Shown: positions 31,626-51,846, counted from the stretch's first letter. The stretch: DNA of 64,000 nt from Candidatus Omnitrophota bacterium (GCA_022710715.1 JAKLGJ010000004.1:256166-320165), one strand, 5' to 3'. Program-made: numbers and translations. The notes: generated by a model from the letters alone, not told the origin.

Positions 31626-31960
31626 GCGATTTTTCGTATTCCCCGGATTTTGTTTTTGAGGAAACGTTGGAATATAAAACGCTTATCTCGGAGTTTGAGA
31701 ACGGAGCGGAACAGCGCAGGCGCAAATGGGCGGCACCTTTGCATAAGTGGCGTTTAAGATTCAATAACCGGGTAAAAGCCGACATGCAAATGGTGCGGGA
31801 TTTCTTCAAAAGTAAATACGGGGCGTTCATGGCGTTTACATGGACGAACCCGAATGATTCGGTTGAGTATTCGGTGCGCTTTGTTGAGGACAGTTTTAAA
31901 TTCACCATGAAAGCGCACGAGGTTTATGACTTTGAGTTTGATGTGATAGAGGTGAAGTAA
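31622..31960 (+). CDS. minor tail protein, gpM-like
   Basis: 112 aa (lambda gpM is 109); synteny. Confidence 0.55.
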   Translation: MSDFSYSPDFVFEETLEYKTLISEFENGAEQRRRKWAAPLHKWRLRFNNRVKADMQMVRDFFKSKYGAFMAFTWTNPNDSVEYSVRFVEDSFKFTMKAHEVYDFEFDVIEVK

Positions 31961-32571
31961 TGCCTAGAGACGTTGATATTACATTTAAGCAGGAAAAAGC
32001 GAAGCAGGAAAACGCTCCGTTATTTCTTTACACGCTTGAGGCGTATGACGGAGTCAATGACCTGCATCTGGCCGGATTCGATCAGGATATTACCTATGAC
32101 GGCGTTCTTTACTCGAAGTTTCCGATAACGCACGAGTTTGTATCCGAGAACAATCAGGGGCAGATTGATCAGGTGAAGGTGCGGCTGGGCAACGTGTCGA
32201 GGCTTATTGAGCTTTACCTTGAGCAGTATGACTTTCGGGGCAAGAAAGTTGTTATCCGCATGGTCTGGGCTGATCAGTTGGCGGATTCGGACGCTCATAT
32301 GGACGACGTATTTTATATCGACAACTACTCAGCTGATCAGAAGAACGTGGAGTTTACTTTAACCGGCAAGTTTGACGTGCTGGGCGTGGATTTACCCGCA
32401 CGCAGGTACGCACGTAACTATTGCGCTTGGAAGTTTAAGTCAGCGGAGTGCGGGTATGTGGGAGGAGAGACCGCATGCAACAAAACGAAACAGCGGTGCA
32501 AGCAATTGGAGAATTACCTGCGGTACGGGGCGTTTCCGTCAGTGCCGTCAAGGCGGATGTACGTAATGTAG
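31960..32571 (+). CDS. minor tail protein L, gpL-like (C-terminal Cys cluster)
   Basis: 203 aa; C-terminal C..C..C..C (YCAWKFKSAECGYVGGETACNKTKQRC) as in lambda gpL. Confidence 0.65.
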   Translation: MPRDVDITFKQEKAKQENAPLFLYTLEAYDGVNDLHLAGFDQDITYDGVLYSKFPITHEFVSENNQGQIDQVKVRLGNVSRLIELYLEQYDFRGKKVVIRMVWADQLADSDAHMDDVFYIDNYSADQKNVEFTLTGKFDVLGVDLPARRYARNYCAWKFKSAECGYVGGETACNKTKQRCKQLENYLRYGAFPSVPSRRMYVM

Positions 32572-32579
32572 AGAAGCGC

Positions 32580-32966
32580 ATGATCGAGAAGTATCTCGGC
32601 ATTCCGTACCGGCACAGAGGCAGAACAATGGACGGTCTTGATTGCTGGGGGTTTCTTAAGCTGGCGTATGCGGATTTGGGAGTTTGTCTTTTTGATATCG
32701 AGGACTTGGAATACGGCAAGGTTTGGGGACTGAAAGGCAAAGATTATTTCAAGGATAATTGCGCCCATGATTGGGTTAAGGTTGCCGATCCGCAGGTGCT
32801 GGACGGTATCTTGTTTTTGAATTCAAGGGGTGTAGCGAATCATGCGGGAATCGTTTTAGGCAATAGGCGGTTTATTCATTGTTGCCGTCAGGGTGTCGTG
32901 GTATCCCGGCTTGATGATGCCTCGTGGGTTAAAAAAGTAGAAGGATTTTACAGGTTAAAAGCATGA
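32580..32966 (+). CDS. tail assembly NlpC/P60 peptidase, gpK-like
   Basis: Catalytic Cys in GLDCWGFLKLAY and His in NHAGIVL; likely start MIEKYLG at about 32580; the ORF-track extension to 32448 overlaps gpL. Confidence 0.7.
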   Translation: MIEKYLGIPYRHRGRTMDGLDCWGFLKLAYADLGVCLFDIEDLEYGKVWGLKGKDYFKDNCAHDWVKVADPQVLDGILFLNSRGVANHAGIVLGNRRFIHCCRQGVVVSRLDDASWVKKVEGFYRLKA

Positions 32967-35900
32967 TCATAATTCGTAACATAGCCAATCCGTTTAAGAC
33001 CGAGGACGCAGAAGTCCGGACGATTAAGTATTCCCGGAGCAAGTGCGTACGGGATTATCTTGAAGTGGCGGGTTTTGATTATCAAGACAAGCGGGTGATT
33101 GTTACTGGCAAACGCATTGATGATTTGTCCGTGCGGCTTGATGATGGCGACGAGATTACCGTTATTCCGGAGGTAAAGGCTCCGATTATCGCTGTCGTGT
33201 CGTGGATTATTTCCGCTGTCTGGGCGGTGGCCGTGGCGCATCCGTTCTTGTTTGCGTTCTTTGTGCTGTCGATGGGGTATTCCATTTATCAGTACATGAA
33301 CCAGCCGAGGATGCCGGATTTTAATTTGGGGTCGGCGAACGGTCTGGACGAAGGATCGCCAACATACGGCTGGGACGGCATTCGGACTATTCAAGAGGTC
33401 GGTGTTCCAGTCGCCGTGGTTTACGGAAGGCACCGGGTCGGCGGCAATATCATCAATCAGTTTTTGTGGGAGGACGGGGATAAGCATTATCTTAATGTTT
33501 TGCTCGCCCTTTGTGAGGGAGAGATTGAGTCAGCAGAGGATATCGAGTTAAACGATAATCCGATAGCTAACTTTGACGGAGTTTCGGTTATTAAGCGGTT
33601 TGGCACGAATTACCAGAGCATGATCGAAAACTTTGAGGATCTGCACAATATTTACTCGATCGGCGCAAATCTCACGCAAAACAATCCTTCTATCTACACC
33701 ATGATTGATTCTGATGTCGAGGCGTTTGAGATTCATCTGCGGCTCAACAACGGATTGTATCAGCAGAGTTCAAGTTCGGGAGATATTCAGAGTTGGAGCG
33801 TGACTTACCGGGTTGAGTATAAACTCCATACCGACAGTGTTTATATCGATCTGGGAGAGACGACAATTTCAGGGCAGTCACGCACGAGCGTGCGCAGGGT
33901 GTTCAGAAAAGACGGGCTCGCACCCGGGCAATACGACATTCGTGTCACCCGCACCAGCGAGGACGGTTCGCTTCAGCCGTTAAAGCAGGGCGACCTCACG
34001 TTGTTTCAAATCGACGAGATTAAAACGGATGATTTGTGTTATCCCAACACCGCTTTGCTTGGGTTCAAGTTGTTGGCGACTGACCAATTGAGTGGATCCA
34101 TGCCGAACATAACGGCGATCGTGGAGGGCAAAAAGGTTTCTATCCCGGATGTGCGTAACGCAGGCAATTCGGTTGACTGGGAAGATTATTACTGGGACGG
34201 AAGTAATTACCGGCTTTTTTCCGATGACACAATTCTTTCGTGGGACGGCTCAACTTATGTCTTGAAGTATTCGGCGAATCCGGTGTGGTGCCTGCGTGAT
34301 TTGGTCACGAATAAAAGATACGGCTTGGGCGAATTTATTTTAACCGACAATTTAGATAACGCTTCGCTTCTTGAGATGTCGCAGTATTGCGAGGAGCGGG
34401 TTCCTGATGGAGAGGGCGGGTATGAGAAGCGGTTTCGGATGGATGTGGTAATTGACAGCAACAATAAAGCGCTCGATGTTTTGATTCAGCTGTGCGCCAC
34501 GTTTAATGCCATGCCGGTGTATAGCGCCGGGGGGTTGACGTTTAAGATTGATAAGCCCACTATGCCCACTCAATTATTCGGCATGGGCAATATCGTCAAA
34601 GACTCATTCGCACAGAGCTGGAAAACCATGAAAGAAGTGCCGAACGTGATCGAGATTCAGTTTACCGATAAAGAGAAAAACTATCGGCAGGAGACAATCG
34701 CTTACATCGATGAAAAATCGCTGGCTTTAGGCGAGCCGATGCGTAAGAGCCAGCTTCGCTTATTTACCACCGGTGCGAGTTACGCCATACGAGCGGCACG
34801 CTACGCATTGAAAGTCGCACGCTACATTAACCGCTCAATTGTGTTTAGGGCGGGGATTGACGCTGTGGCGTGTCAGGCGGGGGATATTATTTCGATATCA
34901 CACGACGTTCCTCAGTGGGGTTTCTCAGGTAGAGTGCAGGCGGAAAGTTCAGCCACGCTTATTAAGTTAGACCGCTCGATGGTTATTGAGGACGGCAAGT
35001 CTTATAAGATTCAGGTTCGGTTTATTGATGACATTATTGAGGAACGGTTTATCACCTCGCCAGTGGGGACGCATACAGAGATTATGTGCGAGGCGTTCTC
35101 GGCTGATCCGCAGGCATTTGATGTTTACGCTATTGGCGAGACCAATAAGGTAAAGAAAGATTTTCGGGTGGTGTCGGTTCAGCGGGAAGGCAAACACGAG
35201 GTGCAGATATCGGCGCTTGAGTATAACGAGGCGGTGTATGACGATTCCGACATTATCTTGCCGCAGAATAATTACTCATCGTTATCAAGTGAAATTCCAG
35301 CGGTCAATAACTTGAGTTTGACGGAATCGCTGGTTAAGAAAACAGACGGTACGATTGAGAACGCAATTGATGTGTGGTTTGACCGTCCGGCGTATGTGGA
35401 TCATTACGTCAAGTCCTACGCCAAGGCGAAGATTTACATAAGCGATGATAACGGGCAGAGCTGGCGAGCAAGAGGCGAGACTACCGGCACGCAGTTTCGC
35501 ATCATCGGTGATATTGTTGACGGTCATACCTACAAGGTCAAGGTTACGTCGGTTGATTCCATGAATGAGGAGAGTTCGCTGGCCATGGCTCCGGAGAGTG
35601 AAATCACGGTTGTGGGTAAGTCAGCGCCGCCATCGGATGTCTCGTCGTTTTTGGTTAACCGAAACAGGGATTTGCTTTATTTCGGCTGGACACCGATTAC
35701 GGATGTGGATGCGTGGGGGTATGAGATCAGGCGTGGTCTTAATTGGGACAGCGGCGAGTTTATCACGCTTCAGCAGGGCTCGCATTATCTGACTAAGGAA
35801 GTCAAGCAGGGTGTTGGGCAGAGTTATTGGATTAAAGCGATAGACACGTCAGGCAATTATTCCATGAACGCAAAAGAGTCGGTTGTGACGATTACCGAGA

Positions 35901-36583
35901 TTCCGTTCAGGAATATGGTCGCCGAGTATCAAGAACAACCTTTGTGGGAAGGCGCAAAAGTTAACGTTGAAAAGAATGCCGATTCGATTGTGATTACGGA
36001 CGGCGTTATGTCGGGGACGTATACCACGCCGGTCAGGGATTTCGGGTATGTGGCGAGCGTTTATATCGGCATAGACGTTGTTGTCGCCACTTCATTGGGT
36101 CGCAGGTTTAACAGCGACGGAGTAACGAAATTTAACGACAGCCTAACGTACCGGTTTACCGGACAGGAAACTTTGAGGGCGACGAGGTTTCGGATACGGA
36201 CATCGGAAGATAACGTTACATGGCGGGATTGGGAAACCTATCAGCCCGGGGATTATTACTGTCGGTACTTTCAGATCGAGTTGACGCTATCTCGGGAGAA
36301 CTTGGGCGATGAGATCACTTGCTCAACGTTTCAGTATTTCGGCGATTTGCCGGACGTTGATGACAGCGGCAATGACACGGTTGTTTCAGCTGTTGATGGC
36401 AAGGAAGTGTTTTTCGTTAAAACGTATCATGAGGAGCCGAGCGTCCACATAGAGATAAGAAGCGGTAACGGGATTTACTCGAAGTTCGTGGATAAAAGTA
36501 CAACAGGTTTCAAGGTTAAGTTATACGACGCACAAGGCGTGGCGCAGGCAGGCTTGTTTGATTGGCACAGCCACGGGATTTAG
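32963..36583 (+). CDS. host specificity / central tail fibre protein J
   Basis: 1206 aa; follows gpK as in lambda; fibronectin-III-like segments. Confidence 0.85.
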   Translation: MIIIRNIANPFKTEDAEVRTIKYSRSKCVRDYLEVAGFDYQDKRVIVTGKRIDDLSVRLDDGDEITVIPEVKAPIIAVVSWIISAVWAVAVAHPFLFAFFVLSMGYSIYQYMNQPRMPDFNLGSANGLDEGSPTYGWDGIRTIQEVGVPVAVVYGRHRVGGNIINQFLWEDGDKHYLNVLLALCEGEIESAEDIELNDNPIANFDGVSVIKRFGTNYQSMIENFEDLHNIYSIGANLTQNNPSIYTMIDSDVEAFEIHLRLNNGLYQQSSSSGDIQSWSVTYRVEYKLHTDSVYIDLGETTISGQSRTSVRRVFRKDGLAPGQYDIRVTRTSEDGSLQPLKQGDLTLFQIDEIKTDDLCYPNTALLGFKLLATDQLSGSMPNITAIVEGKKVSIPDVRNAGNSVDWEDYYWDGSNYRLFSDDTILSWDGSTYVLKYSANPVWCLRDLVTNKRYGLGEFILTDNLDNASLLEMSQYCEERVPDGEGGYEKRFRMDVVIDSNNKALDVLIQLCATFNAMPVYSAGGLTFKIDKPTMPTQLFGMGNIVKDSFAQSWKTMKEVPNVIEIQFTDKEKNYRQETIAYIDEKSLALGEPMRKSQLRLFTTGASYAIRAARYALKVARYINRSIVFRAGIDAVACQAGDIISISHDVPQWGFSGRVQAESSATLIKLDRSMVIEDGKSYKIQVRFIDDIIEERFITSPVGTHTEIMCEAFSADPQAFDVYAIGETNKVKKDFRVVSVQREGKHEVQISALEYNEAVYDDSDIILPQNNYSSLSSEIPAVNNLSLTESLVKKTDGTIENAIDVWFDRPAYVDHYVKSYAKAKIYISDDNGQSWRARGETTGTQFRIIGDIVDGHTYKVKVTSVDSMNEESSLAMAPESEITVVGKSAPPSDVSSFLVNRNRDLLYFGWTPITDVDAWGYEIRRGLNWDSGEFITLQQGSHYLTKEVKQGVGQSYWIKAIDTSGNYSMNAKESVVTITEIPFRNMVAEYQEQPLWEGAKVNVEKNADSIVITDGVMSGTYTTPVRDFGYVASVYIGIDVVVATSLGRRFNSDGVTKFNDSLTYRFTGQETLRATRFRIRTSEDNVTWRDWETYQPGDYYCRYFQIELTLSRENLGDEITCSTFQYFGDLPDVDDSGNDTVVSAVDGKEVFFVKTYHEEPSVHIEIRSGNGIYSKFVDKSTTGFKVKLYDAQGVAQAGLFDWHSHGI

Positions 36584-36594
36584 GAGGAGATTAA

Positions 36595-36813
36595 ATGGCG
36601 AAGAAGTTGATTCCATGCAAAGTGGTTATTGAGTTTGAGAATGGGGAGTTTTTTAACGGTGTCATTTTATATAAAGTTAACGATGGCGGCGAGATCAGCC
36701 GGTTCAAGAGTATCGGGATTAAGGATGTGGATTTTAGTAAACCAACCTTGAACGGGTTGTTGAAAAAATTCATCAAGCACGCCAGCCAGTCGGAAGGAGC
36801 CCAAGATGGATAA
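36595..36813 (+). CDS. hypothetical phage protein
   Basis: 72 aa. Confidence 0.3.
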   Translation: MAKKLIPCKVVIEFENGEFFNGVILYKVNDGGEISRFKSIGIKDVDFSKPTLNGLLKKFIKHASQSEGAQDG

Positions 36814-37081
36814 ATTGATTTGTTGCAAATGCAAGAAGGAGATCGCCGATGATATGGCGTATGTGTCGGTCAGGGGAGATATTATCCTGCGTATGCCAAA
36901 AAGAAAACCTATTGTTTTTACCTGTTCTGAACAGGCGATGAATTACGCACAGCAGATGGCCGTGCATGATGTTTGCTGGATTCAAATGCTACGAGAGCAA
37001 GGGGTTGAGCTTTACGATCTCAATGAGGTCGCTGAGTCGTATCAAAAGAGGGAGGTAGGCGATGGCTTGGGACAAGACTAA
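36806..37081 (+). CDS. hypothetical phage protein with CxxC pair
   Basis: 91 aa; CCKCKK...C. Confidence 0.3.
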   Translation: MDKLICCKCKKEIADDMAYVSVRGDIILRMPKRKPIVFTCSEQAMNYAQQMAVHDVCWIQMLREQGVELYDLNEVAESYQKREVGDGLGQD

Positions 37082-37553
37082 ACCAGAAAACGACATGCTT
37101 TTGATTAACTTCCCGCCAGCCTGCAGGGCTAATTGGGAGGCGCTGGAATTGTTAACGGATCCATTGTTGCAAATAACTAATGAGAAGGTTGCCCCGGGAG
37201 CGGGTATTGAGGACACGAAACTTGCGCAGATAACCTCGCTCAATAAGGTGCATGGTTCGGCGATTACGGGTTTGGCGAGTGTTCCTTCAGCGGCAGGGGT
37301 TTTACCAACAGAAAATTCGCCCAACAAGTTGAAGGCGGATGTCAGCGATACTACGCCGGAGTATTTGGACGGTCTGATTGATACGGCGGTGTTTCAGGTT
37401 TCAGCGAGCGATCAGTTGCAGATAAAAGATGGCGGAGTGTCGACAGTGAAACTTGAGAACGGCGCCGCCTCACCCGGGAATAACAAGTATTACGGAACGA
37501 ACGCATCAGGCACAAAAGGATTTTTTGATAAGACGGCGGTTTACGCCTCGTAA
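37062..37553 (+). CDS. tail fibre protein (putative)
   Basis: 163 aa Gly/Ala/Thr-rich, downstream of gpJ where side-fibre genes sit. Confidence 0.45.
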   Translation: MAWDKTKPENDMLLINFPPACRANWEALELLTDPLLQITNEKVAPGAGIEDTKLAQITSLNKVHGSAITGLASVPSAAGVLPTENSPNKLKADVSDTTPEYLDGLIDTAVFQVSASDQLQIKDGGVSTVKLENGAASPGNNKYYGTNASGTKGFFDKTAVYAS

Positions 37554-37561
37554 GGAGAACT

Positions 37562-38287
37562 ATGGCTCATTTAATGCCGCCAAAACAATGCTCATCGAAC
37601 ATGCCAGCGTGGACGGATCCGGCGCTTTCGGATTTATCAACGAAAGTCCGAAAGGTTCATATTGACGAGTTGCGGTCATTCTTGAACTCTGAGTTTGTGC
37701 GGCGTGGTTTTTCGCAGTCGTCCTATACGGACCCGGCTATCACGGCGTTGGTTACGGAGATCAGGAAGGTTCACGTGGATGAGCTAAGGACAGAACTTGC
37801 GGCGTGCAAGTCCGGCAGGGGGACGTCTGGATATTGTCCGCAGGACAGTTCCGGTTGTATGGACTTCACAGATCCTACGATTACGGCGCTCTCAACAGAG
37901 GTGCGAGGCATTCACTTTCGGCAGATGATGCAGAAGGTGCAAGCATTAATGATGGGGTGCATTTGTGAGACCGAGCAATGCCAGTATTGCGCAGATTGCG
38001 GATATCACTATACGTCGTGCTCATATGCTGGTGTGGCTTGCGATGACCATAAATATTCGGAATGCCAGTATTCAATAAATCATTATTGGAACTGCGCCAG
38101 TATAAATTTGCCGTCTAGCGCAGAGCATCCTTACAAATCAGCGAACCCGCCGGTGGCGTGGGATGGATATGTGCCGTGGGATTGGTGCGTGTATACGCCG
38201 CCGGGCTCAAATTGGGGATCGTGCGAGTATGCGGGCGGGCATAATCATTCGGCGTGGAATTGTAAATGTAACCCTTATTCGTGGTGA
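37562..38287 (+). CDS. repeat-containing Cys/Trp/Tyr/His-rich protein; candidate substrate of the downstream radical-SAM maturases
   Basis: Three about 33-aa repeats ([WYF]TDPxx[ST]xLxTx[VI]RxxHxxELR) at aa 17-130; the C-terminal about 110 aa holds about 16 Cys plus many Tyr/Trp/His (CICETEQCQYCADCGYHYTSCSY...WNCKCNPYSW). Confidence 0.6.
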   Translation: MAHLMPPKQCSSNMPAWTDPALSDLSTKVRKVHIDELRSFLNSEFVRRGFSQSSYTDPAITALVTEIRKVHVDELRTELAACKSGRGTSGYCPQDSSGCMDFTDPTITALSTEVRGIHFRQMMQKVQALMMGCICETEQCQYCADCGYHYTSCSYAGVACDDHKYSECQYSINHYWNCASINLPSSAEHPYKSANPPVAWDGYVPWDWCVYTPPGSNWGSCEYAGGHNHSAWNCKCNPYSW

Positions 38288-38688
38288 TAACTATGCTTGA
38301 AGATCAAGAAAAAGCGGACAACGCTTCATTCAAGGCGGCTCTTTTGGAAAACGAGAACGCAGTGGACGAGCTTATTCATTTCAGTAAGAGCAACCTTGAT
38401 GGTTTAACCGTCCAGTGCTTCACGCATAAACGGTTTATGAGCGTTCAGGCTTTCGTGGATGTTTTGTGTCAGGTGTACCAAGAGCTTGGCGTTCAAGGTG
38501 AGAATGGCAATATCTCAAACTTTGTATTATTTGTTGCCGGAAAGCATAGGGATAACATTTACGCCTCACACGTGGGTGATCTTACCGATCAACATCGGCA
38601 GGTGTTTTCAGAAAGACTCGGGATGGATATTGTTGAGATCGAGGCGGGTCTTAGCAAATTGATTTGGAGGATTGATGGCGGTATTTGA
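38281..38688 (+). CDS. hypothetical protein (possible maturase partner/chaperone)
   Basis: 135 aa, overlaps the neighbouring genes at both ends. Confidence 0.35.
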   Translation: MVITMLEDQEKADNASFKAALLENENAVDELIHFSKSNLDGLTVQCFTHKRFMSVQAFVDVLCQVYQELGVQGENGNISNFVLFVAGKHRDNIYASHVGDLTDQHRQVFSERLGMDIVEIEAGLSKLIWRIDGGI

Positions 38689-39892
38689 ACTTAAGAACAG
38701 CAAGGCGGTTGGTGACCTGCCGTTACAGTGCAGGGATGTTATCAAACGGTATAAAGATGAGGGGATGTTTGATATCGACTCGATAACGGACGGCAAGCAG
38801 GAATACACCACGGTCTATTTTCTTATGACGCAGGATTGCAATCTGCGGTGCGCATATTGTTATCAGCCCAAAGAGTTCAGGCAAAAGGGTACCGGTATCA
38901 CGCAGGATGTTATTGATTCAACGATGGACTGGGTTTCCCGGACGTTCGATGAGCGCAAGATTAAGTTCAGTATCTTTGGCGGTGAGCCGTTCTTGAATTT
39001 CCCGATGGTTCAATATCTTTGCGATACCTATTGCATGTATCGTTACGTTGTCACCACGAATGGTCTTGTGCTTTTGGAGAATCAGGCTGTCAGGGCATGG
39101 GTGTTGAGGCATAAGTATCATTTGAATTTAAGCGTCAGTATATCGGCGTTACGCAGTGTTCTCGGTGATGATTATTTGGATAAAGCTCAGGCGGTGCTTG
39201 ATTTGGTTAAAGCAAACGGCGGGGATGTGCATTATGTTGTTGATGACCCGGAACGTCCGGGAATTTATGAGGAGATTATTCGGTTATATGAATACGGCGT
39301 GCCGATCGTGCGAGTATCATCTGCCCGGCATTGGGATATGGTTAGGGATAAGAATGAGCAGTTCAAGGATTTATTCCGGCGCATAGCGGATTACGTTTAT
39401 TTCGGCGGCCAGCCAAAGTTTGGCAGGAGCCAGTGGGATATAGCGTTAAAGAATAACATTTACCGCAAGATGAAAGGCATGCCGCTCAAGGACGTGCCGC
39501 CGACATTCTGCGGGTGCGGATATCTTTATCTTGCTGTTAACAACAAAGGCGAGATTTATCCCTGCGACTTTTTCGCCAATTATCCGGAGTTCAAGATTGG
39601 CGATGTGCGAAGCGGGTTTAATGATACGGCGTTCTTTTTCAAGAAGATGGGCGAGTGGATTGATGAGCTTTACGAGCATTGCCGTGAGTGCGAGGTTTGT
39701 TTTGACGGTGATATCAGGTGTTGTCCAAGAGCGATGTGTTTGGCAGAGAATTACACCGTCACCGGCAATCCGTTAAAGCCAGCGCCGAATCATTGCTGGG
39801 CGAATCGGATTGAGACAGCGACGTATGAGTATATCGCAAGGAAAGCGATCGAGACCGGCGTTGATAGGTTTTACTACAAGGGGCGGGCATGA
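38672..39892 (+). CDS. radical SAM / SPASM-domain maturase 1
   Basis: CX3CX2C (CNLRCAYC) plus C-terminal auxiliary Cys clusters (CGCGY..PCDFF, CRECEVCFDGDIRCCPRAMC). Confidence 0.85.
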   Translation: MMAVFELKNSKAVGDLPLQCRDVIKRYKDEGMFDIDSITDGKQEYTTVYFLMTQDCNLRCAYCYQPKEFRQKGTGITQDVIDSTMDWVSRTFDERKIKFSIFGGEPFLNFPMVQYLCDTYCMYRYVVTTNGLVLLENQAVRAWVLRHKYHLNLSVSISALRSVLGDDYLDKAQAVLDLVKANGGDVHYVVDDPERPGIYEEIIRLYEYGVPIVRVSSARHWDMVRDKNEQFKDLFRRIADYVYFGGQPKFGRSQWDIALKNNIYRKMKGMPLKDVPPTFCGCGYLYLAVNNKGEIYPCDFFANYPEFKIGDVRSGFNDTAFFFKKMGEWIDELYEHCRECEVCFDGDIRCCPRAMCLAENYTVTGNPLKPAPNHCWANRIETATYEYIARKAIETGVDRFYYKGRA

Positions 39893-40974
39893 AGATTCCG
39901 GTTTATAAATCGGTGTACCTGTATTTGACGCATGCTTGCAACGCCAATTGCTCGTTTTGCTATCGCAGGGGATTGTTTGAGCGCAACAAGATGTCAACGC
40001 TTGGGCCTGTGAAGATGTCAAAACAGACAGCAGATGATATTCTCGATTTCTGTTTTTCGGTGCTCGAGCTGGCGCCTAAGTTCACTATTTATTTTTGGGG
40101 TGGTGAGCCTACTGTTAATTTTGAGGTTATCCAGCATGTGATGGAGAGGTATCCGCAGATGCTCTTTCATATGAACACCAACGGAGCGTTGGTCAATGAG
40201 CGTATGTATGAGTTTTTCTCAAAGCACCGCAATATCGGGATCACGTGGTCGTTTGGCAACTGTTATGAGAAATACGGCGGGCCTCAGGCTAAGGCGCAGG
40301 TGGAAGGGTGGATGCTGAAGCTGGTCAGAGAGAACCCGAATCACAACGTGAACTTCATGGTTGTGGAATATGGGAAGCTCAAAGATGACTTTGATTTTAT
40401 CGCTAAGAACATCACTCGCAATATCACGATTGACCTCGCCACAAGGCATGATCACAGCCAAGAGGATTTGGAGAGGTTCGCCGATCAGTATTTCGAGTTG
40501 CTCATTGAGCATGAGCGAGATGCTGAAATGTTTCAAACTTTAAACCCTGCGCTTCATAGCAACGCTTATGTGCGGGAGTTCGGATTAAAAGCTCAGGTCA
40601 GGGAGTTTCACTTCTGCAGGACGGGGCTTGAGCGGCTTTTTATTGATACCGAGGGCGGTATTTGGCAATGCGACAACATGTATATCTGCAGGCATAACCG
40701 GCTAGGGTCGGTTTATGACGGGATTGATTATTCAAAGTTAGATTACGTTTGGGAGATAGATGCAGATCGGGAGCAGTTTCTTGGTAGGTTCTGTGAGAAG
40801 TGTGAGCTGTATAAGCGGTGCCCTCGGAATAAATGTTTGGGGCTTAATCTTGAGCATATGGGCGATATGTTTAACCCGGAGCCGGGTTATTGCGCCATGA
40901 ACAAGGTTTTGGCGAAGGTCATTGATAAATATATCCAATTGGAAAAGGAAAAGAAGGAGGCGGTTAATGTCTAA
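39889..40974 (+). CDS. radical SAM / SPASM-twitch maturase 2
   Basis: CNANCSFC; C-terminal CRTG..WQCDNMYIC..CEKCELYKRCPRNKC. Confidence 0.85.
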   Translation: MKIPVYKSVYLYLTHACNANCSFCYRRGLFERNKMSTLGPVKMSKQTADDILDFCFSVLELAPKFTIYFWGGEPTVNFEVIQHVMERYPQMLFHMNTNGALVNERMYEFFSKHRNIGITWSFGNCYEKYGGPQAKAQVEGWMLKLVRENPNHNVNFMVVEYGKLKDDFDFIAKNITRNITIDLATRHDHSQEDLERFADQYFELLIEHERDAEMFQTLNPALHSNAYVREFGLKAQVREFHFCRTGLERLFIDTEGGIWQCDNMYICRHNRLGSVYDGIDYSKLDYVWEIDADREQFLGRFCEKCELYKRCPRNKCLGLNLEHMGDMFNPEPGYCAMNKVLAKVIDKYIQLEKEKKEAVNV

Positions 40975-42148
40975 TGAGGAAGTGGTCGGCGGTAAGACCA
41001 AAGATGAAATTAAAAGCATAGATTTGTTTGTTACCGAGCAGTGCAATATGAACTGCGATTATTGTTTTCACCCAAAGGCCGAGGCGGTGCTTTCGGTTGA
41101 GCAGGGTAGAAAGATACTTGATCGGATGAAAGAATTAAGCCCGGGGGCGTTGCAGGTCACGTTCTTTGGCGGTGAGCCGCTACTTTATCCGCAGGCTGTG
41201 ATTGAGCTTGCTCAATACGCCCGGGAGTTGTGGCCGCCGGATAAAGAGGGACGACATACATCCACGTTTTCCATTTCTACTAACGGCATGTTTTTCGATG
41301 AGGGCGTGTTCAAGAAGCTCACAGAGTTGGGAATGGCTATTCAGGTCAGCTGTGACGGTGATGAGATCACGCATACCGAATATCGGCATGGCGACTATAA
41401 GCGGACTATTGAAAACATAAGAAAGATTTTAGCGATAAAGCCGGACATGAGTGTGCGCATGACGTTTACGCCCAAGACGGTCGGGAGGCTGGCGATCAAC
41501 GTGCAGTATCTGCACGAGCTTGGGATTACGAAGATCATGCACCACGCTGTCATAGAGGAGGATTGGACGGATGAAGCGGTAGATCAATACCGTTATCAGC
41601 TGGCGCAGGTTTACCATTACAGGCGGTATTGCAAACGTCAAGGGTTGCCGCTTGAGATAGCGTTTATCGATAAGCCGCTTAAAATCGTGAATGACGAGAC
41701 GCCGCCGGAGAAGGAATATTGTCAAGCGGGTAAAACGTATTTGGCGATACTGGATAACGGTGACGTTTATCCCTGCCATCGAGCGGCCAGCGCAAGGATA
41801 TTCAAGCTCGGCAATATCTTTCAAGAGCGGCCGTTTATCCGGGGCATCTTTCTTAATATCGATAAGGAATACACCGGGTGTTGGAAGAATTGCCCGCACG
41901 CTCGCACATGCCATAGTTGCGTGATCACGCACTATAAGGTTAATCAGGAACTCACGGTCCCGGTCACCAAGTATTGCAGGATATGCGCAGTCGAGAGTGA
42001 GCAGGCGTTAGGATTCTTGCCGGTTGAGCTTGCGGACAGGCGTGAGCGTATGCTGTATAAGGTCGGGCAGGTTTTGGTGGATGTCGCTAAGCAGAACGAG
42101 GAAATATTGGAAGCGTTGAAAAAGGAAAAGACTTATGCAGAACGGTAA
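40967..42148 (+). CDS. radical SAM / SPASM-domain maturase 3
   Basis: CNMNCDYC; C-terminal CQAG..YPCHRAA..CWKNCPHARTCHSC..CRIC; start MSNEEVV after SD AAGGAGG, 8-nt overlap with maturase 2. Confidence 0.85.
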   Translation: MSNEEVVGGKTKDEIKSIDLFVTEQCNMNCDYCFHPKAEAVLSVEQGRKILDRMKELSPGALQVTFFGGEPLLYPQAVIELAQYARELWPPDKEGRHTSTFSISTNGMFFDEGVFKKLTELGMAIQVSCDGDEITHTEYRHGDYKRTIENIRKILAIKPDMSVRMTFTPKTVGRLAINVQYLHELGITKIMHHAVIEEDWTDEAVDQYRYQLAQVYHYRRYCKRQGLPLEIAFIDKPLKIVNDETPPEKEYCQAGKTYLAILDNGDVYPCHRAASARIFKLGNIFQERPFIRGIFLNIDKEYTGCWKNCPHARTCHSCVITHYKVNQELTVPVTKYCRICAVESEQALGFLPVELADRRERMLYKVGQVLVDVAKQNEEILEALKKEKTYAER

Positions 42149-42401
42149 CTGGACAAAATATATCACGCCGGTGTTGGTCACGATCGCCTTGTTTATGCTC
42201 GGGTCTATCATGGCACAGGTGAGCCGGGTTGATGAGAAGTTGTTTCATCATTTGGCGAACGACGAGATTCATATGCCACGGAGCCTTTATGTGTCGAAGG
42301 CGGAGTTTGATATTCAGAGCCGGTTTATCGAGAAAGAAAACGACCGGATTATTAAGGCGATAGACGAACTTAAGAACGATCTCAAGGCGTGGAAAAAGTG
42401 A
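42135..42401 (+). CDS. small single-TM protein (holin-like?)
   Basis: 88 aa, one TM helix, charged C-terminus. Confidence 0.35.
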   Translation: MQNGNWTKYITPVLVTIALFMLGSIMAQVSRVDEKLFHHLANDEIHMPRSLYVSKAEFDIQSRFIEKENDRIIKAIDELKNDLKAWKK

Positions 42402-42402
42402 G

Positions 42403-42738
42403 GTGTATATGGCTGATGGTGAGAAATTTAGTTTGTTGAAGTTCTTGGGAAGTTTCGCTCAGGTATTGCCGTGGGTGAAGACTTTGCGGTATGCGGCGGG
42501 CATAGCATTGGTTGGTTTTGTTGGGCTCACGATATATCGTGCCTTTTTCATGCCAACTCAAACTACCAAACAGGAGACGCATATCATCGCTCAGTCCGGC
42601 GCTCAGGTGACGGTGGATCAGAAAAAGCAGGAGAAGTCGGGAATCGAGGTTAGTCCTTTCGTGGAAGGCTACGGATTCGCTGAATCTGATAACCGCAAGG
42701 GCGTGGGTGGTAAGGCTGGCGTGCGGGTAGAATTTTAG
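42403..42738 (+). CDS. small membrane-anchored protein
   Basis: 111 aa, one TM segment. Confidence 0.35.
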   Translation: MYMADGEKFSLLKFLGSFAQVLPWVKTLRYAAGIALVGFVGLTIYRAFFMPTQTTKQETHIIAQSGAQVTVDQKKQEKSGIEVSPFVEGYGFAESDNRKGVGGKAGVRVEF

Positions 42739-42801
42739 AAGAAATGCCTTGCCAACTATTAAACGTTATGGCCTTATACCCCTCGAAAGGAGGGGATTTT
42801 T

Positions 42802-43068
42802 ATGGTTCGTGAAAACATGACGGCGAAAAAGAGCCGGTATATCAGCGTGCGCAATGGTGGCGAGGAGATGTATGTCGAGAATATCCCGGTGTCCGGCCGG
42901 ATGCGTGATCACCTGCTAGCCACAAAGTTGCGTCTGCAGGAAATCCAAAGGGTTATGCCTTTAGGCAAATGGACGATTACGATTGAACAGCAGTGGAAGG
43001 AAAGCGGCGTTACGCATTTTCAGATGCTTGATGTCGTAAGCGGTAAATTACAGGAGTCGGTACTCTAA
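42802..43068 (+). CDS. hypothetical protein
   Basis: 88 aa, SD GGAGGGG. Confidence 0.3.
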   Translation: MVRENMTAKKSRYISVRNGGEEMYVENIPVSGRMRDHLLATKLRLQEIQRVMPLGKWTITIEQQWKESGVTHFQMLDVVSGKLQESVL

Positions 43069-43087
43069 ACAAAAGGAGGGATTCATA

Positions 43088-43381
43088 ATGGGTAAAAAAG
43101 CTAAAAAACAAAAGGTCGCAGAAAATAAAAAAAAGGTTTCAGCTGAAAGTTTAGCATCTCCAAAAGAAGGGATTGTTATGCACGCAGGGGCTTCTCGTAA
43201 CGAGCTTATGATGACGGCCAAGGAGCGTGGGGTTAAAAACTTTCGGGTGCTAAATAAGCAGGAGTTGAGCGAAGTGTTAAAGAATATCGGGGATCAGAAG
43301 GCTGTGGATGCCATTGTGGCTGGTGCTGTCGCCAGATGGAAGGCTGGCTGGGGAAAGAAAAAGGTAAGCCATGAAAGTTAA
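43088..43381 (+). CDS. Lys-rich protein with Rho-N-like domain
   Basis: ELMMTAKERGVKNFRVLNKQELSEVLKNIG resembles the Rho termination factor N-terminal helical domain; KK-rich N-terminus. Confidence 0.45.
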   Translation: MGKKAKKQKVAENKKKVSAESLASPKEGIVMHAGASRNELMMTAKERGVKNFRVLNKQELSEVLKNIGDQKAVDAIVAGAVARWKAGWGKKKVSHES

Positions 43382-43680
43382 AGCGGAACTCGATTTAAAG
43401 GTCGAGATGGGTGGCGTGTCGCATGACGGCACTGGGTGTCAGGGGTATTTGCCAAAAGGCACACGGTACGAAGAGATCGTCCGGGTGTTCGGTCAACCTC
43501 AACTTGGCAAATCGCTTGATGGTAAGATCAAGGCGGAGTAGGTGGGTAGGATCAACGGCTTGGTTTTTACGATTTATGATTACAAGTCATCGCTGGTGTC
43601 GGAGCGGAATATTGACTGGCACATCGGCGGAAAGATGAAGTTTGTTGCGGAGCTGGTTAATTTGTTTTTTAAGAATGCAT
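43371..43680 (+). pseudogene. 103-codon reading frame interrupted by a single in-frame TAG (codon 57)
   Basis: MKVKAELDLKVEMGG...DGKIKAE-TAG-VGRINGLVFTIYDYKS...; continuous frame apart from the TAG at about 43539-43541. Confidence 0.35.
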
Positions 43681-43742: not shown

Positions 43743-45362
43743 GTGTATATAATGAAGACATTGGCTTCGGATAACTTATTCTCAACATCAATAGAGGTTG
43801 AGTATACAAGAAATACAAGCGTTGAATATCGACGTTCCAAAGGACAATTTTTTACGCCTTTTGATATTGCAGAATTTATGGCTGAGTGGATCGTTGAAGA
43901 CAGGCTTGGTCAGAAACTTCGAATACTGGATCCTGCCTGTGGTTTCGGAGTCTTTGAAAGGGCAATCGCCAAAGTATATAAAGGAGATACCAGCAATTTA
44001 TTATTTGATTTATGGGAGATAGACGAAAAGATACTATGCGAATTGCGAATGATTGTTTCTGATTTAGACGTCAAGGCAGATTTTTATCATGAAGATTTTT
44101 TGTCAAATGGTGAGTGGGATAAATATTATGATGGAATTATAGCCAACCCCCCTTATTACAAACATCACTATATTGATAATAAACAGAAAATTTTTGAAAG
44201 GGTATGTGTAAAATCAAATTATATTTTTAGCATTCAGACAAATATTTACTGTTGGTTTTTAATTAAATCATTACAGCTTTTGAAAGAAGGGGGAAGGTTA
44301 GCTTTTATTGTTCCTAGCGAGTTCTTGAATTCAAATTATGGGGAAAAAATAAAATCTTATTTGATTCAGTCAGGATTGATATGCCATTTGATCAATGTTC
44401 ATTTCAAGGAGAATGTTTTTGAAGACGCATTAACCACTTCTGTTATAATTCTTGCAGAAAGAAATGTTCAAATACATAAGACAATAAATTTTTATACTGT
44501 ACACGACGCCGCTTATCTAACAAACCTTTCTTCATTTTTAAAAGAGCAAAAGCATAAAGCATTTGTTACAAAGAATCTTGACCCAAAAATCAAATGGCGA
44601 AATTATTTTAATGGGTATAAAGATCATTTTGAAAACAGCGATAAGGTTGTACCGTTTGTTACGTTTGGGCGTTTTTCTCGAGGCATAGCTACTGGTTCAA
44701 ATAATTATTTTACTTTATCTAAGTTAGAGGTTGAGAAGCATAGGATTCCTTCAGAGTGTCTGTTGTCATGTATAACAAAATCATCTTTTGCCAAAAGTCG
44801 GCGTTTCGGCATTGAGGATTTCCAATCATTGGTTATTGAGGGGAAGAAGGTTTTTCTTTTTGATGGGAATCGAGCAAAAACCGAATCCGTAGCGGCATAT
44901 CTCAAGTTAGGTGTAAACGAAGGAGTTGATCAGAAATTCTTAACAAAATGTCGTGATCCTTGGTATAGTCTAGAAAAAAGAGAATGTTCGAAAATATGGG
45001 TTTCTGTTTTTGGACGTAATGGATTAAAGTTTATATGGAATGAAAGTGATTGTCTTAATTTGACGTGTTTCCATGCGTTTTCGACAACACAGATCGGTGA
45101 AGAATATTTGGGGATAATCTATCTTTATTTAAATACATCTATCGCACATTATTTTCTTGAGAAGGAAAAAAGGGAATATGGGAATGGTTTGGAAAAATAT
45201 GAGCCCAATGATATCAATAAAACCATGATCCCTGATTTTAGAAAATTAGATAAGACGCAGAAGGCTAAGTTACAAGATTTGTTTCAAAAACTTATTTTAG
45301 GTAAGGACGAAAAGAAAGTTGTGGATGAAGCAGATAGAATTATTCGTGGGCTGATCGAATAG
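43743..45362 (+). CDS. N6-adenine DNA methyltransferase, Eco57I-like gamma class
   Basis: FFTPFDIAEFM, motif I ILDPACGFG, motif IV NPPY (GIIANPPYY); 539 aa. Confidence 0.85.
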   Translation: MYIMKTLASDNLFSTSIEVEYTRNTSVEYRRSKGQFFTPFDIAEFMAEWIVEDRLGQKLRILDPACGFGVFERAIAKVYKGDTSNLLFDLWEIDEKILCELRMIVSDLDVKADFYHEDFLSNGEWDKYYDGIIANPPYYKHHYIDNKQKIFERVCVKSNYIFSIQTNIYCWFLIKSLQLLKEGGRLAFIVPSEFLNSNYGEKIKSYLIQSGLICHLINVHFKENVFEDALTTSVIILAERNVQIHKTINFYTVHDAAYLTNLSSFLKEQKHKAFVTKNLDPKIKWRNYFNGYKDHFENSDKVVPFVTFGRFSRGIATGSNNYFTLSKLEVEKHRIPSECLLSCITKSSFAKSRRFGIEDFQSLVIEGKKVFLFDGNRAKTESVAAYLKLGVNEGVDQKFLTKCRDPWYSLEKRECSKIWVSVFGRNGLKFIWNESDCLNLTCFHAFSTTQIGEEYLGIIYLYLNTSIAHYFLEKEKREYGNGLEKYEPNDINKTMIPDFRKLDKTQKAKLQDLFQKLILGKDEKKVVDEADRIIRGLIE

Positions 45363-46242
45363 CCTCAAGAAAATTTGGTTTTATTTCAGCGTGTCCACCT
45401 TTAAAGCGCACATAGTGCAATAATCTCCCACCCTCTAGTTCTTTAGTTTTACCTTCCAAATCGGGCAGTGTAATCTTTTCAGATATTTGTATTCCTTGAT
45501 TTAAGTAAATATGAATCGTTTCTTTAAACTGATTCTTGGGATTTTTTTCTATAGCGAACGCCGGAAGACCATTAAAAACCCCGTAGATTTTTTTATTTTT
45601 AATTCCTTTTATTGTAATATCTGAGCTTCCTAGTATTTCAAGAATTTTAGTAAAGGGTATTAAATAAATTGTATCGAAAAAAACTTGTACATAATAATGG
45701 GGAACACCATATGTTTTGATCCATTTCAATACAACGAGCAAGTCCTCGACCTTTGGAGTAAAGCTTAAGAACGGACGGTCATCTTTTGGGGAAAACTTTT
45801 TAGTTAAATAGGCACTCGAACGAATTTCCATGCCAGCCAAAGATTCCGGAACAATTATTTTTAGGTCATCTAATGATAATTGGCTGATATCTTTTCCCCA
45901 CTGAGATTTGTATAATTGAGGCGTGTATAGTAGAAGGTCGGGGCGTTTTCCGATGGTGTCTAGTTCGTTTTGATAGGATAAATAAAACGTTTTAAAGCCG
46001 GGATCACCTGCAATAATTTTATCCGATTTTCCATATTTAATTGGGATAAACTTTTCTGGAAAAGTTTTTTCAATGCTGGAAAATAGTAAATTTTCAGCCC
46101 AATCGCCCTGCTCGCTATGGGTTAGAAAATCAGAAAATGCTTGAGTAGGGGCAGTTCCCTTTTTTCTGTTGATATTAAGGTTAATAATATCAGTTGAAAT
46201 CTTTTCGCTTAATTCCTTTATTGATTCTTGGTAGCCATTCAT
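45340..46242 (-). CDS. candidate restriction endonuclease (convergent partner of the methyltransferase)
   Basis: 300 aa, low-GC codon usage, tail-to-tail overlap with the methyltransferase gene; no family recognised. Confidence 0.4.
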   Translation of the reverse strand: MNGYQESIKELSEKISTDIINLNINRKKGTAPTQAFSDFLTHSEQGDWAENLLFSSIEKTFPEKFIPIKYGKSDKIIAGDPGFKTFYLSYQNELDTIGKRPDLLLYTPQLYKSQWGKDISQLSLDDLKIIVPESLAGMEIRSSAYLTKKFSPKDDRPFLSFTPKVEDLLVVLKWIKTYGVPHYYVQVFFDTIYLIPFTKILEILGSSDITIKGIKNKKIYGVFNGLPAFAIEKNPKNQFKETIHIYLNQGIQISEKITLPDLEGKTKELEGGRLLHYVRFKGGHAEIKPNFLEAIRSAHE

Positions 46243-46244
46243 AA

Positions 46245-46880
46245 TTATTTTTTATCTTGCTTCTTTTTTTGGGCAACTAAAATCTCGTCTTGTAATTCCT
46301 TAATAAAATCGGCATTAGAACGCTTGGTTGCGGATTCGATATCCTTGTATTTGGATGACTGCAAATTGCCGTTATTGCTAGGATTGACGTAAATGTCCGG
46401 TAACCATGTTATGGGCATCACATAGCAATTTATTAATTCAATAGTCATATCTTCATTGAAGCTAATAAGGAAAGTCGCTATATAAAGTTTTTCTTCAGGT
46501 TTGCTTTTAAAGAACTCAAGAAGTCCTACCGCTTTTGAGATGTCATCTTTGCTGACCTTTACATCATTAACGGCAGATTTTATGTTTATGTATGCACAAT
46601 CATTATTTTCTTTAAGTGTGAGGCTAAGATCGTAAACGCTTACTTCAGAGTCAGAGGGGGTTACTTTTGTAAAACCATATTGATCTGCTTTTTCTTCAAG
46701 ATTTTGGCATATGATTTCTTCAAGTAATCTCCATACCGTTCTTCCTTTTTTCGCTTTTCTCCAGCCGTATGGGAAATGCTTACGTGTACCGATTTGTATT
46801 TTTCCTAAATCGTCGATTAGTTTCTTAAAGGTCGTTTCTAATATTTTCCGAGATTGTTCGGTTTTAAGTATTTCATTCAT
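46245..46880 (-). CDS. hypothetical protein (possible second restriction subunit)
   Basis: 211 aa, co-directional with and 3 nt from the previous gene. Confidence 0.35.
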   Translation of the reverse strand: MNEILKTEQSRKILETTFKKLIDDLGKIQIGTRKHFPYGWRKAKKGRTVWRLLEEIICQNLEEKADQYGFTKVTPSDSEVSVYDLSLTLKENNDCAYINIKSAVNDVKVSKDDISKAVGLLEFFKSKPEEKLYIATFLISFNEDMTIELINCYVMPITWLPDIYVNPSNNGNLQSSKYKDIESATKRSNADFIKELQDEILVAQKKKQDKK

Positions 46881-47360: not shown

Positions 47361-47513
47361 ATGGAATACGATTTTACCATGGGTGCTGATATGGTGAAAT
47401 GTCCGCATTGCGGGGCTGGTGTGCCTTGCAGTTTATTTTTTGATGATGAGGTCGAATGCCCCAAATGCGGAAAGAAGTTTCGTAAGGAAGAAGGCGAAGA
47501 TGGCAAAGCATAG
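47361..47513 (+). CDS. small zinc-ribbon protein (50 aa; not in the ORF track)
   Basis: MEYDFTMGADMVKCPHCGAGVPC...ECPKCGKKF; its stop overlaps the ATG of the next gene. Confidence 0.4.
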   Translation: MEYDFTMGADMVKCPHCGAGVPCSLFFDDEVECPKCGKKFRKEEGEDGKA

Positions 47514-51822: not shown

Positions 51823-51846
51823 GGGTAGGGTCAAGGGGAGAAAAAT

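Follow-up and report, generated by a model that had tools for sequence, protein, structure and literature searches.

A Cys-rich protein and three radical SAM/SPASM enzymes form an exchangeable cassette in the tail module of a lambda-like Omnitrophota prophage and may provide a cross-linked tail tip

We analysed a stretch of 64,000 nt from a Candidatus Omnitrophota bacterium (GCA_022710715.1 JAKLGJ010000004.1:256166-320165; hereafter the window, in which all positions are counted from the first letter) and identified, at the end of the tail genes of a lambda-like prophage, a five-gene cassette (37525-42149, + strand) that encodes a Cys-rich protein (CRP), a small accessory protein and three radical S-adenosylmethionine (rSAM) enzymes. 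Nucleotide comparison with a sister phage, L093, defined this cassette as an exchangeable block, and CRP and its enzymes were never found apart in the loci that we surveyed. On balance, we favour a model in which CRP is a tail-tip protein that is covalently knotted by rSAM-installed cross-links and is carried in a horizontally exchangeable tail-tip cassette.

The open reading frames (ORFs) of the window include five, all on the + strand, that occupy 37562-42148, and these correspond to the 241-aa Cys/Trp/Tyr/His-rich protein, small protein and three rSAM enzymes that an earlier interpretation of this DNA (the sequence-only reading) had placed downstream of lambda-like gpJ and fibre genes. CRP (37562-38287, +; 241 aa) has a GGAG ribosome-binding site, and GGAG-type sites were found at the cassette genes in general. 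The small protein had been given as 135 aa, a length that holds with a GTG start at 38281, and the most likely start is the ATG at 38293, which gives 131 aa (38293-38688, +). The three enzymes, all radical SAM/SPASM proteins on the + strand, are rSAM-A (38675-39892 from ATG, 405 aa; alternative start 38672), rSAM-B (39889-40974, 361 aa) and rSAM-C (40967-42148 from ATG, 393 aa; alternative start 40922). With the most plausible starts, a gap of 5 nt separates CRP from the small protein and the subsequent junctions are overlaps of 14, 4, 8 and 14 nt, so that the overlaps of 4-8 nt originally assigned to these genes apply to rSAM-A/B (4 nt) and rSAM-B/C (8 nt) and not to the other junctions. No signal peptide or transmembrane (TM) segment was found in any cassette protein, and profile scans detected no protease, ABC exporter or immunity-like gene in the cassette here or in 10 related contexts, as had been claimed for the genes associated with peptides that are made on the ribosome and modified after translation (RiPPs). 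Because CRP is carried by 44 protein clusters, almost all of them metagenomic, by 41 IMG/VR loci and by 11 GTDB species genomes, the cassette ORFs are real, selected genes and not chance ORFs.

All three enzymes matched the radical SAM model PF04055 above its cut-off of 29.5 bits (rSAM-A 33.5, rSAM-B 31.8, rSAM-C 64.2). A stand-alone SPASM model was matched by rSAM-A (TIGR04085, 33.8 bits, cut-off 27) and by rSAM-C (PF13186, 24.9 bits, cut-off 21.5); rSAM-B had no such match above cut-off, and it contains seven invariant Cys in the canonical pattern and aligned end to end with the PapB model (residues 7-328). The SPASM signature is a C-terminal motif of seven Cys (C-X9-15-G-X4-C ... CX2CX5CX3C ... 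C) for two auxiliary clusters, and we found C-X12-13-G-X4-C among the conserved C-terminal Cys of all three enzymes. Each of them also has CX3CX2C, GGEP and seven to eight C-terminal Cys that were invariant or nearly so among 8-9 orthologues: rSAM-A has C56/C60/C63 and seven conserved C-terminal Cys, rSAM-B has C17/C21/C24 and seven, and rSAM-C has CX3CX2C and eight further conserved Cys. The CX3CX2C motif was kept in every orthologue save one, the apparently motif-less rSAM-B of locus L006, where the start had been mis-called and the motif was found upstream, so that a loss of rSAM-B at this locus was ruled out. By these signatures, A, B and C can be assigned to the SPASM subfamily, as the sequence-only reading had stated for each maturase.

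The best named family for all three enzymes was PapB (NF047865; A 108, B 100.9 and C 168.8 bits, below the equivalog cut-off of 340). It was followed by nif11, SCIFF, CXXX-repeat, CcpM and QhpD-type maturases, all far under their cut-offs (best scores 106 for SCIFF TIGR03974, cut-off 425; 94 for CXXX-repeat TIGR04115, cut-off 350; 69 for QhpD TIGR03906, cut-off 453; and 65 for anSME TIGR03942, cut-off 349). The nearest solved structure was 5WGG/5WHY, which we take to be CteB; it was the top match for rSAM-A and rSAM-C (E 1e-19 for C against 5wgg) and the second for rSAM-B. The best named families all comprise thioether-forming peptide or protein maturases and the nearest structure is CteB, which we count in favour of A, B and C being enzymes of this kind. 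The nearest families are thus peptide- or protein-modifying, not cofactor or nucleotide rSAM enzymes; missing SPASM-type clusters and a closer kinship with non-peptide rSAM families had been named beforehand as outcomes that would speak against a maturase, and we found full SPASM Cys sets and neither of these outcomes. The alignments to 5WGG/5WHY began at residue ~91-95, and with the ATG starts for A and C only 16-55 residues precede CX3CX2C in the three enzymes, leaving no room for a RiPP recognition element (RRE) domain.

The three enzymes are mutually 19-23% identical, and each is 50-66% identical to its own counterpart in nearer unrelated contigs and 28-39% identical in the most distant ones, with A-B-C as the usual order. 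For rSAM-A, identity to its orthologues was 39-66% in most loci and 30% in the most divergent one (L009). Judged by these identities, A, B and C are three old orthologous groups and not recent duplicates; the former description of three tandem rSAM genes stands, and the term paralogous was loose.

CRP contains 17 Cys (7.1%). Over its last 110 residues, Cys makes up 11.8%, Tyr 10.9%, Trp 6.4% and His 5.5%. Its N-terminal part consists of three helical repeats of ~32 residues (TDPxITAxxTxIRKxHIxELR, hereafter HxxELR; 37607-37957, +; residues 16-47, 54-85 and 101-132), which are followed by a Cys/aromatic-rich C-terminal domain (37958-38284, +; residues 133-241) that is the likely site of cross-linking. 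AlphaFold2 (AF2) predicted one helix per HxxELR repeat with a predicted local distance difference test score (pLDDT) of 80-90 and left the Cys-rich domain unmodelled, with pLDDT < 50, as would be expected if the fold of this domain needs cross-links or metal. Among 54 non-redundant CRPs, twelve Cys are at least 93% conserved (10, 92, 133, 135, 140, 143, 146, 153, 160, 178, 234 and 236), and D95, E136, E138 and D145 are at least 96% conserved; C10, C92 and D95 lie upstream of the Cys-rich domain and are equally conserved. These residues include the repeated Cys-x(1-2)-Asp/Glu pairs C92xxD95, C133xxE136, C135xxE138 and C143xD145. The best-conserved blocks of CRP are residues 131-150 and 231-240, and the largest internal insertion load is carried by a hypervariable loop (38126-38161, +; residues ~189-200) with a hotspot after residue 195, so that conserved blocks flank one insertion/deletion-hotspot loop, as in receptor-binding tips. 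An optional segment, residues 221-230 (CEYAGGHNH, which holds an HxH motif), was gapped in 32% of the non-redundant sequences.

No match for CRP was found in Pfam, NCBIfam, PHROG or PADLOC. One homologue, P0007, has a precomputed match to Pfam PF27469.1, a model that may cover either the HxxELR or the Cys-rich domain. When 1.8 billion representatives were searched with a profile, the repeat domain proved widespread (4017 matches at E <= 0.001), often as a terminal part of large proteins that also contain Ig, PKD, BACON, cadherin, RHS, S8 subtilase or amidase domains, and the source annotations of HxxELR-domain proteins were all 'hypothetical'. The full CRP architecture is rare, with 18 matches at E <= 1e-30 in the same search. 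Some CRP homologues have N-terminal extensions of 75-175 residues. The idea that one HxxELR repeat serves each enzyme was rejected, as three-repeat proteins pair with one or two rSAM enzymes (L086, L089, L093) and one-repeat proteins with the same Cys-rich domain also occur (P0098, P0112).

The linkage of CRP with its enzymes was evaluated by running hidden Markov models for CRP, A, B, C and the small protein on the encoding contigs, 41 IMG/VR contigs and 11 GTDB species genomes; the resulting loci were not dereplicated, some contigs came from two collections, and the E-values of the related-locus search are relative to the candidate stretches only. All 49 loci in which at least 1.7 kb followed CRP had rSAM-A, and where at least 4.3 kb was available A, B and C were all present in 36 of 37 loci and the small protein in 34 of 37. 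Thus CRP never occurred alone; its occurrence alone, as an ordinary tail fibre, is what the sequence-only reading had singled out as speaking against its interpretation. rSAM-B was absent only from L009 and L053, which have the most divergent and shortest CRPs; the L009 protein lacks residues ~183-213, and the segment 221-230 is unrecognisable in it. That the two loci without rSAM-B have the shortest CRPs is suggestive only, and hints at a CRP segment targeted by this enzyme. CRP and its enzymes also diverge at similar rates.

One of these loci, L058 (NZ_CP019384.1 1853632-1870366), lies in the complete genome of Candidatus Velamenicoccus archaeovorus LiM and contains a prophage of this type; its cassette is complete, and its CRP is 87% identical. 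This organism, a predatory ultramicrobacterium, is maintained in a methanogenic enrichment for which metaproteomes are public; phage, tail or rSAM terms do not occur in the supplements of the paper on that culture.

The boundaries of the cassette were given by comparison with the sister phage L093, an IMG/VR contig. Nucleotide similarity was unbroken over 32226-37524 (71%), absent over 37525-42149 and present again at 42150-43674 (75-82%), so that the DNA breakpoints fall at 37524 and 42150 and the non-homologous block coincides with the five-gene cluster almost to the base. The gpJ protein of L093 is 75% identical over 1208 residues, and its counterpart of the 163-aa fibre-like protein that precedes CRP is 81% identical. 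In the slot between them and the downstream genes, L093 instead encodes a 191-aa protein with a (CT)n cysteine tract at its end, and genes for a SPASM and a B12-type rSAM enzyme come next. This protein and CRP have only the first ~40 residues and the HxxELR repeats in common (E 1e-6), and their C-termini differ; retention of the N-terminal part and replacement of the C-terminal part is the pattern of exchangeable fibre modules. Since CRP and its enzymes are never apart, diverge alike and are swapped as one block against L093, whose Cys-rich protein brings its own rSAM enzymes, CRP is very probably the substrate of A, B and C.

The alternative cassette was seen at L093:5415-8631 and L089:6016-9268, and also in L090, L092, L094, L095, L097 and L107. 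Its Cys-rich protein has 176-200 aa, HxH motifs interspersed among its HxxELR repeats and a CCECEC(TC)n tract at the C-terminus, and it adjoins a SPASM rSAM gene and one for an rSAM enzyme with a B12-binding domain (a match under the Pfam cut-off, and in L093 only). The cassette of this kind in L089 follows Baseplate_J.

The CRP cassette was found on at least four unrelated tail or baseplate backbones. These are the lineage of this prophage (gpJ identity 73-99%); a second lineage, which shares the downstream genes and has a gpJ of ~30% identity; unrelated siphovirus-type contigs, in which the cassette follows tape-measure and distal-tail genes and sometimes lies between tail-fibre-like genes; and myovirus-type contigs, in which it follows gp25/PAAR/Baseplate_J genes. 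Its place in the gene order is therefore the distal one within the tail or baseplate module that tail-fibre and receptor-binding genes occupy. In the window we read the cluster as the end of the late tail operon, because no promoter-like site was found on the + strand between 36000 and 44000 and a terminator-like hairpin, the best of its kind, lies at 42779-42795 (+; five GC pairs in a six-pair stem, then a T-run). Peptidase_S74 aids the folding of trimeric tail fibres and spikes and then cleaves itself at its first serine. In one CRP homologue, P0090, encoded at a locus with the module of A, B, C and small protein, CRP is directly joined to Peptidase_S74 (52 bits, cut-off 22), and the predicted self-cleavage would leave a ...CKCxPFSW end, as in free CRPs. 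The position after gpJ/fibre-like or tail/baseplate genes on at least four backbones, the late operon and the S74 fusion together are why we associate CRP with the tail. The earlier preference for a modified structural or virion protein over a bacteriocin gains support from the same facts, namely a discrete cassette in a tail slot, the number of backbones and the S74 homologue, together with the lack of signal and TM segments, as far as sequence comparison can indicate.

Unusual cargo was observed near the cassette in two related phage contigs. At L007:4789-5836, AdoMet-decarboxylase-like (a weak match) and spermine-synthase-like genes lie inside the tail module, and at L005:15889-20765 genes for NeuB, CTP_transf_3, a thrombospondin-repeat protein and a stand-alone SPASM protein lie downstream of the cassette.

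Our model for the linked residues, the chemistry, trimer formation, virion incorporation and receptor binding of CRP, as for its role as substrate, is built from comparative genomics. During late expression, in the anoxic host cytoplasm, A, B and C would act non-redundantly to install several covalent cross-links in the Cys-rich domain, possibly assisted by the small accessory protein. The likeliest chemistry would be the formation of thioethers between Cys-S and Asp/Glu side chains, of the PapB/CteB/QhpD type, with C92xxD95, C133xxE136, C135xxE138 and C143xD145 as likely sites, and one or more of the enzymes may form another type of link that uses an invariant Trp or Tyr. The cross-linked and probably trimeric CRP would then be mounted at the distal end of the tail, for which the 163-aa fibre-like protein encoded directly upstream is a candidate docking partner, and would serve as a compact tip or receptor-binding element with a stability independent of redox state. 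We suggest that the thioethers would take the role of disulfides, as they could be made in a reducing cytoplasm and would survive in reducing or anoxic habitats.

Several observations weigh against this model. Neither CRP nor the HxxELR domain was found in INPHARED (cultured phages), in the PDB or in BFVD, so that no characterised fibre holds them; a Foldseek search with the CRP model against PDB and BFVD gave nothing at E < 1, and a fold assignment failed. The S74 fusion is a single observation limited to one lineage. None of the three enzymes comes near the cut-off of any curated family, so that no chemistry can be assigned to them, and the twelve conserved Cys could partly be metal ligands. 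The junction between tail and lysis genes is a classic site for non-structural 'moron' genes, and all HxxELR repeats on the phage contigs that were retrieved belong to Cys-rich proteins encoded beside rSAM genes, which would also fit a leader-like role in recognition.

The last of these points belongs to an alternative in which the HxxELR region is a long leader and the Cys-rich part a cross-linked core, the product, RiPP-like and either cleaved or intact, being freed at phage lysis for an extracellular role (toxin, metal binder or signal) instead of one in the virion. In its favour, the repeats on the retrieved phage contigs stand only N-terminal to Cys-rich regions, of four core types, beside rSAM genes, the repeat region is similar in size to NHLP or Nif11 leaders, the Cys-rich core motif is the best-conserved part of CRP, nif11-type and CXXX-repeat maturase models are among the better NCBIfam matches, and release by lysis would spare an exporter. 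We nevertheless consider it unlikely. The cassette shows none of the features of a classical RiPP cluster (a short precursor with a cleavable leader, a peptidase, an exporter or immunity gene): no protease lies in or near it, the domain boundary has no double-glycine-type motif, and the precursor would be 241 aa long. The enzymes have no RRE, and the small protein, a part of the conserved module that is 100% identical to proteins of Omnitrophota metagenome-assembled genomes (MAGs), is not demonstrably one when judged by a winged-helix fold, with three strands then three helices, and by PqqD similarity. The repeat domain is no dedicated leader, since its 4017 representatives include large surface proteins without a Cys-rich part, and neither S74 fusion nor N-terminal extensions are RiPP features, nor is a position that is always inside tail or baseplate modules.

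CRP could instead belong to a non-structural accessory system of the prophage whose site of action is the lysogen or the infected cell and whose task might be superinfection exclusion, anti-defence or host takeover. The junction between tail-fibre and lysis genes is a hotspot for phage accessory cargo and tolerates insertions, the cassette is swapped as a block, and the lack of signal and TM segments implies a cytoplasmic location at synthesis. A moron of this kind would not be expected to lie inside the late operon with no promoter of its own, or to recur in non-integrated-looking sipho- and myovirus contigs always distal to tail or baseplate genes and sometimes before further fibre-like genes; the S74 fusion and a repeat domain typical of extracellular multidomain proteins point the same way, and membership of a defence system was rejected, as neither CRP nor the small protein had a PADLOC match. 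We regard such a system as improbable. Very improbable, in our estimation, is a third reading, in which CRP is not the substrate but binds metal or an Fe-S cluster, perhaps as a structural Zn/Fe site or as electron carrier for the enzymes, and the rSAM enzymes modify another tail protein, a glycan or a nucleic acid. HxH metal sites are known in tail fibres, twelve conserved Cys and an HxH motif could ligate metals, the failure of AF2 on the Cys-rich domain is expected for metal-dependent folds, and the gpL protein of this phage has a four-Cys motif that brings to mind the Fe-S cluster of lambda gpL. An unrelated target, however, would leave the strict 1:1 linkage of three dedicated enzymes to CRP unexplained; the nearest relatives of these enzymes all act on Cys-rich peptides or proteins encoded alongside, different Cys-rich proteins are co-swapped with different rSAM sets, and the near-invariant Cys-x(1-2)-Asp/Glu pairs match known thioether motifs (PMC9413430).

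The model of a cross-linked tail tip has partial counterparts among known systems. QhpC, the gamma subunit of quinohemoprotein amine dehydrogenase, is a small periplasmic enzyme subunit with a quinone cofactor, and like the cassette the QhpD/QhpC pair has a SPASM enzyme that acts on a Cys-rich polypeptide which stays in a protein assembly; the QhpD model is among the matches for all three of our enzymes. It differs in that one enzyme makes all the links, there is no connection to viruses or tails, and A, B and C reach only 52-69 bits against a cut-off of 453. QhpD forms several Cys-Asp/Glu thioethers in a Cys-rich protein subunit, not in a secreted peptide (PMC11002830). PapB forms thioethers in Cys-X3-Asp/Glu motifs, tolerates spacings of 0-6, and its links can replace disulfides (PMC9413430). 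PapB and CteB resemble A, B and C in CX3CX2C, a SPASM domain with seven Cys and a Cys-rich substrate with nearby acidic residues, but they have an N-terminal RRE and act as one enzyme on a peptide of ~40-50 aa with a cleavable leader, whereas the cassette pairs a 241-aa two-domain substrate with three enzymes (101-169 bits vs 340), has no protease or exporter and lies in a phage tail module. The CXXX-repeat (TIGR04115), SCIFF, CcpM and nif11 systems also encode a Cys-rich target beside a SPASM maturase; CRP differs from the CXXX-repeat type by a fixed, non-repetitive Cys pattern in a domain of ~110 residues, all scores are far under the cut-offs, and a literature search found no publication tying these families to phage tails.

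Among viral systems, fibres and spikes with Peptidase_S74, such as the K1F endosialidase and the T5 L-shaped fibre, resemble the CRP system in that one homologue has S74 right after the CRP C-terminus, in the distal position among the tail genes and in that only the N-terminal part is common with the L093 protein. The CRP of the window, in contrast, has no S74, is short (241 aa) and has no known fibre fold, and we know of no S74 fibre that requires radical SAM enzymes. The HK97 capsid chainmail, which consists of autocatalytic Lys-Asn isopeptides, has in common with the proposed CRP links the purpose of hardening a virion component; dedicated radical enzymes acting on a tail protein would be involved here, and the likeness is one of function only. 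Jumbo phages of the SPN3US type were considered as cultured examples, as they have paired rSAM genes near tail-assembly genes, and were rejected as a different system because the neighbours have 0-2 Cys and there is no CRP. At the locus in question (L012, Salmonella phage SPN3US NC_027402.1 134255-147361), two adjacent rSAM genes have as neighbours a tail assembly chaperone gene and genes for a DUF4376 protein and a structural protein of the virion; none of the proteins encoded nearby is Cys-rich, and gp101 has 0 Cys.

By gene content, the lambda-like prophage comprises 7-43.5 kb of the window and encodes replication proteins, a gpA-type terminase TerL, a lambda-family portal, capsid, tape measure, gpL, an NlpC/P60 gpK and gpJ. 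The gpJ-type tail tip or host-specificity protein (32963-36583, +; 1206 aa) matches PF24801 FNIII-A_GpJ and PF13550. The fibre-like protein of 163 aa (37062-37553, +), directly upstream of CRP and outside the cassette, is 80-99% identical across this prophage lineage. Two small single-TM proteins of 88 and 111 aa (42135-42738, +; KD19 maxima 2.00 and 1.74) follow directly downstream; they too lie outside the cassette, are kept in L093 and in the second backbone lineage, and are possible lysis genes. Lambda gpL binds an Fe-S cluster, and the gpL homologue of the window (31960-32571) has four Cys at its C-terminus (CAWKFKSAEC...ETAC...KQRC), which resemble that motif; if the analogy applies, the tail tip would already hold one Fe-S protein.

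The left end of the prophage has tRNA-Ser genes and a serine recombinase, and the host glycine-cleavage genes lie outside it. tRNA-Ser CGA (7321-7409) and GGA (8719-8806) flank an ORF similar to LAGLIDADG homing endonucleases (7918-8706), and the serine recombinase ORF (8693-10432, -) adjoins or overlaps tRNA-Ser GGA with its 3' end. The right boundary is undefined, since no att site in the form of an exact repeat of at least 14 nt was found between 7250-8850 and 42000-64000. The host is Candidatus Omnitrophota, and an Omnitrophota MAG contig carries a 99%-identical CRP. A host radical SAM protein (3838-4728; PF04055, 68.7 bits) is encoded next to the glycine-cleavage genes and may be lipoyl synthase; this gene indicates that the host runs rSAM chemistry. 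Just to the right of the phage late region lies a restriction-modification unit (43743-46880, 33% GC) with an Eco57I/N6_Mtase-type methylase (43743-45362, +), an AccI-type restriction endonuclease (45340-46242, -) and an unannotated ORF of 211 aa (46245-46880, -). It is followed at 47419-54443 by a + strand island of seven genes with 40-45% GC, mostly without Pfam matches, which include an MBL-fold/RMMBL nuclease-like protein (50530-51822, +) and an NTP_transf_8 nucleotidyltransferase (53757-54443, +). The sole PADLOC match in this island was a weak one of PDC-S18 to 49694-50533, and the island could be a defence or mobile island.

The module of the window appears to be one well-defined family within a broad, undescribed class of phage cassettes that combine a Cys-rich protein with rSAM enzymes. 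A scan of IMG/VR by alignment to rSAM-C returned at least 429 phage rSAM/SPASM stretches, with identities of at least 70% in this module and at most 37% elsewhere, and among the matches listed many of the distant stretches abut very Cys-rich ORFs. HxxELR proteins with (CT)n tails are among these neighbours. HxxELR repeats combined with long C-x3-C repeats were seen at L100:4765-5976 and L115:4032-5177, and other C-x3-C repeat proteins adjoin rSAM genes at L118:7161-7874, L124:7172-7753 and L127:3284-4390. Proteins of 516-779 aa with 59-96 Cys are encoded at L087:4035-5930, L091:2562-4898 and L105:344-1891; the Cys-rich ORFs that directly adjoin one or more rSAM/SPASM genes have C-x2-C or C-x3-C repeats and reach 96 Cys in 632 aa. 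A different arrangement, four tandem rSAM/SPASM genes, was observed in L130-L144 (e.g. L131:5974-11622), some of which are contigs of > 200 kb and which are presumably human-associated, judging by IMG sample numbers; a crude filter showed no obvious Cys-rich neighbour in them.

These observations lead us to a more tentative generalization, to which we give slightly less than an even chance: phages of anaerobic bacteria might, as a general modular strategy, cross-link their own tail-tip proteins with dedicated rSAM/SPASM enzymes, with at least four Cys-rich designs serving as interchangeable host-range cassettes. With the same reservation, these designs would be the CRP knot, the (CT)n tails, the long CXXX-repeat proteins and the short Cys clusters, each with an HxxELR domain and its own rSAM set. 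If this holds, these would be the first radical cross-links that enzymes are known to install in a structural protein of a virus, and protein-sized rSAM substrates would form a large untapped reservoir.

Radical SAM/SPASM maturases are known from secreted peptide natural products and a few enzyme subunits, and to our knowledge virion proteins are hardened only by autocatalytic links, disulfides or metals. In a literature search, neither this cassette nor any maturation of phage tail proteins by rSAM enzymes turned out to have been described, which agrees with the opinion, already voiced in the sequence-only reading, that it is not a described phage module. The enzymology is of a known kind, and what is new is the protein-sized substrate, the set of three RRE-less enzymes and the tail-cassette context. 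The model is directly testable, as the cassette is only 4.6 kb long and the enrichment of Ca. V. archaeovorus LiM offers an 87%-identical copy of CRP. If it is correct, three RRE-less, protein-acting SPASM enzymes with a defined 110-residue substrate would become available, along with many related phage systems. Virus assembly would gain a post-translational step of a new class, which would explain how small receptor-binding domains remain stable in reducing, anoxic habitats, and host-range cassettes would be known in a new form that carries a tip along with the enzymes maturing it.

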